Source: Octopus vulgaris (Eukaryota). From it: DNA of 64,000 nucleotides. The stretch spans positions 62,806,001 to 62,870,000 of the forward strand of contig OX597828.1 of assembly GCA_951406725.2 (NCBI GenBank), written 5' to 3'. A model generated the notes under the pieces. The model made no database searches, had not been told where the DNA came from, and saw only the letters and a program-made list of their open reading frames with translations. The position numbers and the translations under genes were made by a program. Each line of letters begins with the position of its first letter. The stretch's first letter is position 1. Shown in pieces: positions 26,177-50,003 of this stretch.

Positions 26177-29100
26177 TGATTGATTGATTGATTGATTGAT
26201 TCTAGTTTCAGCTTATGAGCTGTGGCCATGCTGGGGCACCGCCATTTGGTGTTGCTACTTGGTTTCACTTCATGGAGGCTTTCTAGCAACTGCTATTTGG
26301 TGCATGAGAGAGTTCGATGCAGCTGCCCTCATCTGCCCCTCCTGCCGTGAAGTTGGTTCATCTGGGACACCTGACAGGAAGAGATCCAGCTTCATTTTAA
26401 AGACATCTGTATCCACCCCATGCAGGTCTTTCAGGTTCTTCGGGAGGATATTGAAGAGCTGTGGGCCTCGGAAGCCCAGGCTATCACAGAATCTTGTCCT
26501 ACATCTTGATGGCAAGTTTGGAGTCCTAGGCACCACGCAGTGGCGCCCAGTTCTGGCATTTGCGTAACTCTCGATGCCAAAGTTCAGGACACTTCCCTCC
26601 AGGATCTTCCAGATGTATATTATGGCATATCTTTCCCGCCTACGCTCCAGGGAATATAATTTTAATCTCTGAAGTCTTTCCCAGTAGCTTACATTCTGCA
26701 TAGAGGCTATCTTCTTCGTGTAGCTTCGTTGGATTGCCTCAAGTTCTGTGATCAACTTGACACTGGATGGTGACCATAGCTGAGAGCAATAGTCAAAGTG
26801 GCTTAGGACAAGTGTCTTCCAGAGGACCATCATGGTTTCTTGTTCTCTTGTTCTAAAGGTTCTAAGAATCCAGCCAGCCAGCCGTCTGCATTTCATTGTC
26901 AGTTTAGCAACATGTACATGAAAGGTCGCGTCATCACTCATGTGAATACCCAGGTCACGCACTGATTGTGCCTCTGGGATTGCAATCCCTCCGGGTCCAG
27001 TGTATTCATTGGGTATTGCCTTCAGTTTTGCATGCTGATAGTATAAAGCTTGAAACTTTTCAGCATTGAACTGCATGCTATTCTTTTCAGCCCACTTGTA
27101 TATTTCGTCCAGCTCATATTGCAGGTGCTTAGTGTCTTCAGGGTTCTGTATTGCCTGTGAAACTTTTGTATCATCTGCATAACTTGTGATCGTGGCTCTC
27201 CGCGTGGCTGAGGGCATGTCTGAGAGGGCCATTATGAACAGTAGTGGTCCCAAAACAGTGCCCTGTGGAACACCGCTCACTATTTGCATGCTAATGGAAG
27301 TGGCCCCATTGGCTGCTACCACCTGACTTCTATTCTTCAGAAAGTCGTGAAGCCATTCTCCTAGTTTTCCAACTATGCCAAGATCACGCAGTTTGTGACA
27401 TATCATTCCATGATCGACTTTATCGAAGGCCTTTGCGAAGTCGAGATATATGACTTCCACATTTGAGTGGTTGAGCAGTTGTTTCAGCACCCAGTCATAG
27501 TGCTGCAGGAGCTGAGTTAAGCAGCTTCTTCCTGGTCGGAAACCATGTTGGGTGTCAGGCAGCAAGTCATTTTCTTCAAGGAAGGTGATTAGTTTCCTTC
27601 TGACTATTCGTTCCATGACCTTGCTGATGTGTGAGGTCAGAGACATAGGTCTGTAGTTCTTGGCCTCCGCTCTGCTACCTCCTTTATGAATAGGGCATAT
27701 TTTACCTTCCTTCAGTTTTCTTGGAAGTTTGCCAGCTGCAAGGAAGCTCTGAAAGAGGAACTGCAGTGGTCTTGCTAGGACTCTCTTACATACTTTTAGG
27801 AGGATTGCCGGGAATCCATCGGGGCCAATAGCTGAGTCTGTTTTTTATTTCATCTATAGCCTTTATTACAACGTCTTCCTTTATATCGATGTAATTTATC
27901 GTCGCCGCCTCTGATTCTATATCTGCAGTGGTAAAGAAGTCAGTTGGATTGCTGATTTGGAAATGCCCAAGGGGTGGAGTGAAAACACTCTTGAATTGTT
28001 CATTCAGTTTTTCACTTACCCTCATTGGTTTTCCTGTGAGTGTGCCATCCTTTTCAAGGAGTGGCCCTATCCTACAGTGCACCGTAGCTGTTTCTTTGGC
28101 ATACCTGTAGAAAGCTCTGGGGTTTGTTTTTATGTTGTCTATAGCCCAGGCTTCTTTGTCTGCTCTTTCCTTGTCATGGGAGAGTTGCAGACAATTTTCA
28201 ATTTCCAACAGTTTTATTTTCAGGCGGGACTTTTCACTGCTTTCAATTTGTTTGTTTAGGCGATTTGAAATTTTTGTACGCCGTCTCATTAAAATTTTCC
28301 TCTCTCTGGGGATTTTGTTCTTGTGTACAGTGGCCTTTCTCTCTGGGACACATTTGTAGCATATGGCTTGCATTACAGACATGAATTGTTGAAGTATCAT
28401 GTCGATTTCCGGCGAGGAGAGACATTCAGGCCAGTTTTGTTTGAGGATCTCTTTCTCAATTTGTTTCCAGTTTGCCTTATTGAAGTTCAAGCTGGAAAGA
28501 TTCTGAGGGTTTCTTGTAGGCTGCATGTCCGTGCTCTCTTTTGGCCCGTACATGGTCAGCTCTACCATGTTGTGATCCGAGAGTAGTGTCGGTGTCACTT
28601 TCACATTATGGATGAGATCCATATTATTTGTGAAGCAGAGATCCAGTGTGTTACCTGCTCTGGTTGGTTGGAGTATTACTTGCTCCATGTACAGGGTGTT
28701 GATGAGGTTCAGGAGGGACCTCGCCTGTCCTCGTTCACATCTTGTCATTCCTGGGAGAGAAAGGCCCTTGGGCCATCTGACATTGGGTAGATTGAAGTCT
28801 CCCATGAGAAGTACACTTATGTGTTGTTCTAATGTGGTTAGAACTTCTTCTATTTTTTTTTTTTTAAAAAGCAGTCCTCAAACTTGCCCATATGACTTGG
28901 GGCATCTGGAGGGCGATATGTAGCACACACAACTACATCAAGTTGCCTTATGTGTACAATTAGTGTGTCACACACCGAGTTTGAGTATGACAAGAGGACC
29001 TGGGGTGTGAGGTCCCCACGGATGTACATAGCAACTCCTCCATGACTCCTTTCTTTCCTGTCGGTCCGTAGTACAACATACTGTGGTATGTGTAATTCCG

Positions 29101-29340
29101 CATCTGCTATGTCCGGTTTCAGATGCGTTTCTGTGAGTGCTATGCATAAGGCTTGATTGCATGCGACAAAGTATCTCAGGAACGGGACTTTTGTCCTGTT
29201 ACTGTGTGTTAGTAGTCCTCTGATGTTCAGTAGGAGCATCGAGGTGAGGTGTATGCTGTTGCAGGCGGTGTCCACCCTGGGTCCATCTGCTGTGGCGGTC
29301 TTGTGAACTGTGGGCAGTTCCATCTGCGAGCCTGGAGTAA
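26177..29340 (-). mobile_element. LINE copy A: CR1/L2-group non-LTR retrotransposon (APE endonuclease + RT), frameshifted, (ATCA)n tail
   Basis: APE motifs [27 protein letters not shown] motifs LDFAKAFD, GVPQG, YADD. Frameshifts lie in A-runs at ~28860 and ~27843. Confidence 0.95.
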
Positions 29341-49800: not shown

Positions 49801-50003
49801 ACTAGATCTCTTCCTGTCAGGTGTCCCGGATGAACCAACTTCACGGCAGGAGGTGCAGATGAGGGCAGCTGCATCGAACTCTCTCATGCATGAGATGGCG
49901 TTTGCTAAAAAGCATCCGTGAGGTAAAATCGTGTAGCAAACCAAATGGCGGTGCCCCAGCATGGCCACAGCTCATTAGCTGAAACTGGAAAAATCAAAAT
50001 CAA
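46831..50003 (+). mobile_element. LINE copy D: same subfamily as A, opposite orientation, (AAAATC)2 tail
   Basis: APE and RT in three segments. Relative to copy A there is a 1-bp deletion at ~47813 and a 28-bp deletion at ~48893. Confidence 0.95.

Follow-up and report, generated by a model that had tools for sequence, protein, structure and literature searches.

The 64-kb window analyzed here (the whole stretch of Octopus vulgaris DNA under study, G000:C15:62806001-62870000; positions below are counted within it) contains four copies of long interspersed nuclear elements (LINEs), each ending in a compact 3' tail of two hairpins followed by AAAC, as well as short interspersed nuclear elements (SINEs) that carry related tails. 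This tail and the junction at its 5' edge are the subjects of the present analysis. LINE copy A (26205..29340, minus strand) is 5'-truncated and has a frameshifted second open reading frame (ORF2) of the apurinic endonuclease-reverse transcriptase (APE-RT) type, with Pfam matches to RVT_1 and Exo_endo_phos_2. Its tail (26205..26244, minus strand) comprises hairpin 1 (26224-26243), hairpin 2 (26209-26222), AAAC (26205-26208), and an extra pair (26244/26223), and is followed by the A-specific terminal repeat TAG(AATC)n (26177..26204, minus strand). Copy B (29998..32904, minus strand) has a tail with a UUCG loop (29998-30036) and a terminal repeat at 29984-29997. Copy C (37156..38708, plus strand) starts at the edge of an assembly gap and has its tail at 38670-38708, followed by the terminal repeat AA(GTAAAAGA)n (38709..38728, plus strand), which is identical to the repeat of young SINEs. 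Copy D (46833..49985, plus strand) belongs to a subfamily of A, with its tail at 49947-49985 and a terminal repeat from 49986. All four copies, in both orientations, are located within a (TA)n/(TACA)n microsatellite field (25066..51599, no strand assigned). The SINEs comprise one full-length tRNA-headed copy (3120..3509, plus strand), which is decayed (76% identity to a younger copy) and has its tail at 3463-3499 with a loss of 2 nucleotides (nt), and two decayed tails (510..552 and 10920..10958, both minus strand).

Pfam matches on the window ORFs indicate that APE-RT ORF2 pieces precede all four LINE tails, and both the endonuclease and the RT domains are also matched on a full natural LINE homologue. 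A and D share 94% identity, whereas B and C differ more from A/D (about 75% and 70% identity, respectively; 69-75% among families overall), such that the four copies represent three families (A/D, B, and C). The best genomic copies of these LINEs are 98-100% identical, which indicates that the families are young. Protein homologues elsewhere have 43-69% identity, and the best named match is from Argonauta hians (60%). A basic stretch between the endonuclease and the RT is conserved in these LINEs. Their CR1 label is putative and comes from octopus catalogues. A metagenome scan for such tails in other animals gave two weak, uninformative loci.

Fold and covariation of the tail

An earlier note on this DNA had listed seven tail stretches, which are all present at their positions and on their strands, and had described a covarying two-hairpin signal shared by three LINE subfamilies and the local SINEs. 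The three groups hold as families, although A and D, which it had listed apart, are not separate. The two-hairpin fold is supported for the LINE tails by z = -2.6 (A), -2.4 (D), and -2.4 (C), and more weakly for B (-1.1); the decayed SINE tails at 510-552 and 10920-10958 have values of about -1.6. The covariation of hairpin 2 is borne out among 16 representatives, which were placed in a gap-free register from anchors and include LINEs that are only about 45% identical in protein. Pairs 2-5 of this hairpin are paired in 64/64 cells, compared with 25-42% pairing when the register is slid, and each of these four inner pairs is doubly changed (A-U/G-C, G-C/A-U, C-G/U-A in the SINE, and C-G/U-A). 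Between 0 and 2 of 500 shuffles reach four of the five covariation measures, and the count of further pair types is not above shuffles.

Several details of the fold differ from the earlier description. The proposed 5-bp stem with a 4-nt loop stands for its four inner pairs. The outer pair is C.A in B and is also broken in K, K2, and M (4 of 16 representatives), which leaves a universal stem of 4 bp; the loop varies from 3 to 7 nt and is free in sequence. The "one base" thought to separate the hairpins pairs with the base preceding hairpin 1 in 12 of 16 representatives, with six double changes (RNAalifold); this extra pair would make the hairpins abut or share a flank, which suggests stacking. 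Hairpin 1 has nearly fixed arms, an invariant G.U beside a G.G mismatch, and a free loop of 4-12 nt. The T that was taken as an alternative in its GGC(C/T) end is a minor variant, found in 2 of the 30 top B copies, with GGCC in the others. The upstream 3' untranslated regions (UTRs) had been called unalike. Those of A and D are alike, and the UTR before hairpin 1 spans only 15-26 nt. For the full-length SINE, the tail reported with a CAGTC-AAAT-GAC hairpin is present, but 2 nt have been lost from the family form CAGTC-AAAT-GACTG, and hairpin 2 is unfolded in this copy.

Genome-wide, a pattern that excluded the main SINE found 12,648 tail copies, with 0 for the reversed-pattern control. By hand count, pair 5 of hairpin 2 is T-A in 88, C-G in 10, T-G in 1, and mismatched in 1 of the 100 matches listed. 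Further tail lineages with an RT upstream are E, F, G, H, I, N, O, K2, and K, while M and J were seen as tails, with ORF2 confirmed for neither. K and K2 have 43-45% protein identity to the A-like homologue P0003 and retain the same fold with different letters. In all, the tail is common to at least a dozen lineages or subfamilies. Lineage-specific short tandem repeats, not poly(A), follow AAAC in A, B, C, D, K, and K2; lineage E often ends A-rich.

The 5' junction, bare tails, and U6 chimeras

The tails have a preferred 5' breakpoint. On copy A, this junction hot spot lies at 26245..26249 (minus strand), 2-6 nt upstream of hairpin 1 with a peak at -3/-4, and the equivalent sites in D, C, and B lie upstream of 49947, 38670, and 30036. 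Among A-group tails genome-wide, the number of matches falls from 8,527 at -2 from hairpin 1 to 3,697 at -7. In a position-ordered sample (the first 70 of 100 listed), 30 copies run at least 70 nt into the LINE, 10 belong to a second SINE subfamily, and 30 are short (2 with U6, 1 with another RNA polymerase III (Pol III)-like head, and 27 bare or other). The breakpoint lies at -2 to -6 in 39 of the 40 copies without LINE body and at -10 in the remaining one, with none between -11 and -69. Loose ends at 26246, which corresponds to -3, were found in two independent contig sets (33 and 11 contigs). By extrapolation from the A-group counts, the junction appears to have been used thousands of times. 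In addition, individual contigs connect the edge of hairpin 1 (26243-26246) with LINE sequence lying 50-100 nt farther upstream (within 26243-26347), as if the RT had jumped from the tail to another piece of LINE RNA.

A self-cleaving ribozyme (hammerhead or HDV-like) was considered for the stem followed by GAAAC. No Rfam match was found in the window and no hammerhead core was found before the stem; the raggedness of the junctions, which are spread over 5 nt, was also counted against it.

The reading that we prefer, with a probability of about 0.6, is that the two hairpins, AAAC, and the short terminal repeat form a shared 3' tail, likely the binding site from which the ORF2 protein (ORF2p) initiates reverse transcription, that moves as a unit of 55-70 bases. 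With high probability, ORF2p would recognize hairpin 1 by its fixed arms and hairpin 2 by its shape, the two hairpins probably forming an end-to-end stack; it would then nick at ATAT and prime in the terminal repeat. At somewhat better than even odds, 5' trimming of the LINE mRNA up to the bound protein would leave an ORF2p-loaded tail RNA that is then copied, with the RT either finishing or jumping. In such a process, a nuclease would shorten the LINE mRNA from the 5' side as far as bound ORF2p, and the tail-only RNA left would still be loaded with this protein. The RT would then copy the tail RNA to its physical 5' end and, by finishing there, produce a bare tail. Alternatively, it would jump onto an abundant product of Pol III (U6, pre-tRNA, or SINE body) at its 3' end, and where the acceptor RNA has an internal promoter, a SINE would be created or re-tailed. 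The Pol III SINE RNA would escape the decay that trims the Pol II LINE message. The 5'-side decay step leans on general knowledge of XRN1. More tentatively, a routine RT-loaded tail RNA of 55-70 nt may be at once a protein footprint and a portable adaptor that is fused to nearby Pol III RNAs by end-to-end jumps.

The comparison with SINE tails bears on an alternative that invokes abortive reverse transcription, in which the RT works on intact RNA, loses its grip after copying its own binding site, and stops or switches a few bases later. This alternative predicts the same junction position, set by structure rather than sequence, and needs no additional RNA species. However, the LINE body is absent from 30 of 60 independent A-group tails, whereas only 2 (at most 9) of 73 SINE tails are bare (p = 5e-11; the SINE tails came from 400 kb of evenly spaced sequence and 30 position-ordered loci). 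SINE RNAs share the hairpins, so a stall intrinsic to these should affect both, and we consider abortive copying unlikely. Alternatively, bare tails may derive not from shortened LINE RNAs but, by truncation, from a small number of undiscovered non-autonomous masters in which the tail was gained once. One such master is known, as the second SINE body wears the A-group tail in 10 of 70 copies, and the older subfamilies F and H have a raised share of bare tails. Nevertheless, many LINE subfamilies are reflected among the bare tails and U6 chimeras, with the loop and terminal repeat particular to each, and the 5' edges of these tails vary by a few bases. The model would also have to account for the truncation of masters at this very point; such masters are highly improbable as the explanation.

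U6 small nuclear RNA sequences, joined by their 3' ends in sense orientation, provide a second view of the same junction. A pattern search found 76 U6-tail junctions genome-wide, with 0 in the control. Among 28 classified rows, 25 are at -3 to -5 (four of which represent one duplicated event) and three are at 0-1, the latter being among five rows picked for their odd look. These classified junctions are on A-group, B, E, N-like, and SINE tails, which differ in their upstream bases; C-type and K-type junctions are also present, giving six tail types overall. As a control, 30 of 259 U6 3' ends were taken regardless of their downstream sequence. Seven are tandem genes, 13 loci (8 events) are on tails, 8 abut the main SINE at its first base, 1 is on another tRNA-like head (by eye), and 1 adjoins unassigned sequence. 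None of the 30 unselected ends is joined inside a LINE body, and none is poly(A)-tailed. The seven tandem U6 genes (L285-L291, G000:C1:139421208-139431273) are about 1.1-1.4 kb apart; most have CT after the T-run, which may explain the CT at many U6-tail junctions. Rfam confirmed the U6 identity and three tRNA-plus-tail loci (3 tRNAs in 6 loci picked by eye), while ARAGORN found 1 tRNA in 15 loci and 0 upstream of 40 short tails. At locus L351, a tRNA with a 113-nt insert, probably an intron, and a 3' trailer is joined to an F-type tail; the insert and trailer suggest that an unprocessed tRNA precursor was captured.

For abortive copying, the U6 data add a second difficulty. U6 is also joined to the natural first base of full-length SINEs, but not to internal LINE truncations, as expected if jumps need a template end. 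The chimeras may instead have formed at the RNA level, by RtcB-type ligation of U6 or pre-tRNA to cleaved tail RNA before retrotransposition. The U6 parts of the chimeras retain their 3' ends, which fits ligation, and this model too requires a discrete tail RNA. RtcB ligation needs a 5'-OH, which the 5' ends of Pol III SINEs would not have, yet U6 is also joined to the first base of these SINEs. Ligation by itself leaves bare tails unexplained. Of the two accepted routes to U6/L1 chimeras, one is RNA ligation (PMC13174262). The 0-3 extra bases at most U6-tail junctions, on the other hand, suit non-templated addition before a jump, and non-LTR (long terminal repeat) RTs are described as jumping between separate templates after such additions (PMC8857657). 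Taken together, these points make ligation quite improbable.

The joined RNAs also bear on an alternative in which the hairpins stabilize the RNA or help to form its 3' end, in place of RT recognition, and are kept by the SINEs for that purpose. A decay-blocking structure would likewise covary and set a 5' edge. However, unrelated RNAs were retrotransposed once joined to the tail, and the lack of poly(A)-tailed U6 among the 30 ends is the pattern reported for stringent LINEs (PMC4476161, in its passages on U6 chimeras), such that a role in stability has a probability close to negligible. Bare tails and U6 or tRNA joined to a tail were retrotransposed, so the tail alone is sufficient cargo. Together with the covariation of hairpin 2 across deep lineages, this makes the claim of the earlier note that the structure is the RT recognition element well supported by sequence comparison. 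The two-hairpin element is real, and it is very likely the RT recognition tail.

SINE partners, target sites, and genomic surroundings

The further claim that the tail identifies the LINE that mobilizes these SINEs goes too far, as at least a dozen lineages or subfamilies carry the tail and the SINE hairpin 2 is unlike that of any LINE found. Among 96 SINE-type tails (a sample, not genome-wide), none lies directly behind ORF2, and no LINE with the hairpin 2 of the SINE was found there. C or a relative is the best candidate partner. The SINE tail has 87% identity over 53 nt with C, 85% over 46 nt with A, and 78% over 50 nt with D. The terminal repeat of the SINE best matches that of C in 49 of 73 copies (J in 9 and E in 6), and 45 of the 73 repeats differ from the C repeat at no more than two of its first 12 bases.

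The main SINE has a tRNA-like head and a CORE-like segment (by eye), and it is probably one of the octopus tRNA-derived SINEs OK, OR1, and OR2 (Ohshima and Okada 1994, as cited in PMC4824008 and PMC4758252). Most of the 58 motif matches in 400 kb are SINEs, which corresponds to about one SINE per 7 kb. A second SINE family wears an A-group LINE tail, mostly of the G type (L180, L190, L250, L352, and others). Its body is also found with the tail of the main SINE (L080), with the swap at the same junction point.

LINE insertions show a preference for ATAT targets. Once the terminal repeat is trimmed off, the next six bases agree with ATATAT at five or more positions for 107 of 154 LINE tails, compared with 3.7% of background positions; most of the 154 loci are top BLAST matches, so young copies are over-represented. 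This is a preference rather than strict specificity, since about 30% of LINE tails are elsewhere and the 5' flanks often lack TA. The target site duplications in 17 LINE copies are only short or ambiguous.

The TA/TACA field of the window (26 kb) is strongly strand-skewed and contains the assembly gap (37056-37155); its array lengths may be assembly-dependent. Elsewhere in the genome, among the copies listed, dense clusters of A-group and C copies are found at G000:C1:71.1-73.1 Mb and G000:C2:55.6-59.1 Mb. At four loci (L033, L050, L016, and L080), tails of different families face or trail one another over short TA runs, forming small nests like that of the window. In near full-length B copies (L102, G000:C2:154313500-154320500, and L101), the first open reading frame (ORF1) begins with a Myb/SANT-like domain, a weak match below the cut-off (E = 0.014). 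These copies also have a CCCH-like zinc finger, seen by eye across a frame change, and a long pyrimidine-rich 5' region. The terms "Myb" and "CCCH" are absent from PMC4120745. Within the window, a mariner-type transposase fragment (Pfam Transposase_1) is located at 23473-24213 (plus strand), and a two-hairpin look-alike at 58990-59045 (minus strand) is flanked by a 10-bp direct repeat. The look-alike (59014-59033) was rejected as a member of the tail family, being single-copy with no family found.

Relation to known systems and significance

Several points weigh against the preferred reading of a mobile, ORF2p-bound tail unit. The 16 representatives are related, and the shuffles ignore this relatedness. 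On a lineage tree that omits O, M, J, K3, and the SINE, the compensatory changes reduce to about five independent events. In this tree, I2, represented by a short copy, has a long branch, and the weak support for the E/B/A order leaves either one or two changes at pair 5. The hairpin 1 core has no double change in its seven pairs. Support for its fold therefore comes from energy, loop tolerance, and a single flanking pair, which is itself broken in 4 of 16 representatives. For the SINE bare count, 9 of 73 tails had no BLAST match to the body, and 7 of these were reassigned by eye as decayed SINE body. The bare share is uneven, at 2/15 in the youngest subfamily A, 13/19 in F, and 10/16 in H (counts from a second classifier, which moved one copy), and some bare inserts break inside hairpin 1, a class that the A-group tail pattern excluded. 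The pattern behind the 76 U6 junctions allowed only junctions within 14 nt, and five of the 76 represent one duplicated locus; the U6 control for LINE tails is small (5 events versus 0, p = 0.03). The samples of non-SINE tails, A-group tails, and U6 3' ends were drawn from one contig. The ATAT signal of the SINE tails is weaker (15/68, with 68 of 96 tails trimmable). Finally, the proposed recognition role rests on comparison, and the tail-only RNA is a postulated species.

Recognition of a 3' stem-loop by the proteins of stringent L2 elements is established (PMC4176376). The passages on UnaL2/UnaSINE of eel and ZfL2-1 and ZfL2-2 of zebrafish in that paper describe a similar arrangement, in which a 3' stem-loop is followed by terminal repeats without poly(A) and is shared with SINEs, and a basic stretch lies between the endonuclease and the RT. 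However, those elements have one stem-loop in which the loop confers specificity, whereas the octopus tail has two abutting hairpins with free loops and fixed hairpin 1 arms. Among molluscs, the oyster CR1-14_CGi with BivaV-SINE2 and BivaCORE-SINE1 is another CR1-group LINE with a structured, shared tail and compensatory changes (PMC4824008), and further pairs are described in PMC4758252 and PMC11481361. The passages on these pairs in the three papers mention neither a fixed junction nor bare tails, and the core motif of the octopus tail was not found in their searched supplements (one file excepted).

A likeness to the octopus chimeras is provided by U6-L2, U6-Mon-1, and U6-AnolisSINE2 of platypus and lizard, in which sense U6 is joined to short pieces of stringent LINEs and to SINEs (PMC4476161). 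These chimeras are explained there by template switching, which is proposed as a route of tail gain by SINEs. The text on these chimeras describes no fixed junction at a structure, whereas the octopus junction is at -3 to -5 on six tail types; moreover, about half of the sampled octopus A-group inserts consist of the tail only, and the host is an invertebrate. Young CR1-type families are also described for O. vulgaris, whose CR1 LINEs are active (PMC13282606), and for a CR1 cluster of O. sinensis (PMC10294476), but the sections of the 2026 octopus repeat catalogue on active CR1 and SINE families (PMC13282606) contain no analysis of tail, partner, or target. Related passages are found in PMC4494074 and PMC5786205, and the element in the relevant part of PMC9115989 is an RTE element. 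The word "Octopus" is absent from PMC3747384, a paper with a table of SINE/LINE pairs. The literature searched yielded no paper on this tail or its fixed junction. The link between SINE and LINE itself may already be on record, for example in Ohshima and Okada (1994/2005), Repbase, or Dfam.

Stringent tails and U6 chimeras are thus already known, and the new part is the position-fixed release and re-joining of the tail. This fixed 5' junction and the ATAT target preference are additions beyond the earlier note; without the junction result, the finding would be an ordinary new SINE-LINE pair. The gain of an exact LINE tail by a SINE is usually attributed to an unspecified template switch, whereas the switch point is fixed here. 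The stages are all visible, from the bare tail to U6 or tRNA with a tail and to one SINE body with two different tails. The tails found alone or joined to U6, tRNAs, and short repeats are likely to be new parasitic repeats in the process of being born. The analysis also delivers the minimal cis-element of a young and abundant octopus LINE group, and it makes the origin of SINEs open to experiment, as a reaction whose substrate can be named. If the tail RNA does act as a portable adaptor, the fossil junctions would map the boundary of ORF2p binding to within a few bases, and the octopus genome would hold a record of SINE birth and tail exchange as a recurring reaction at a fixed position.

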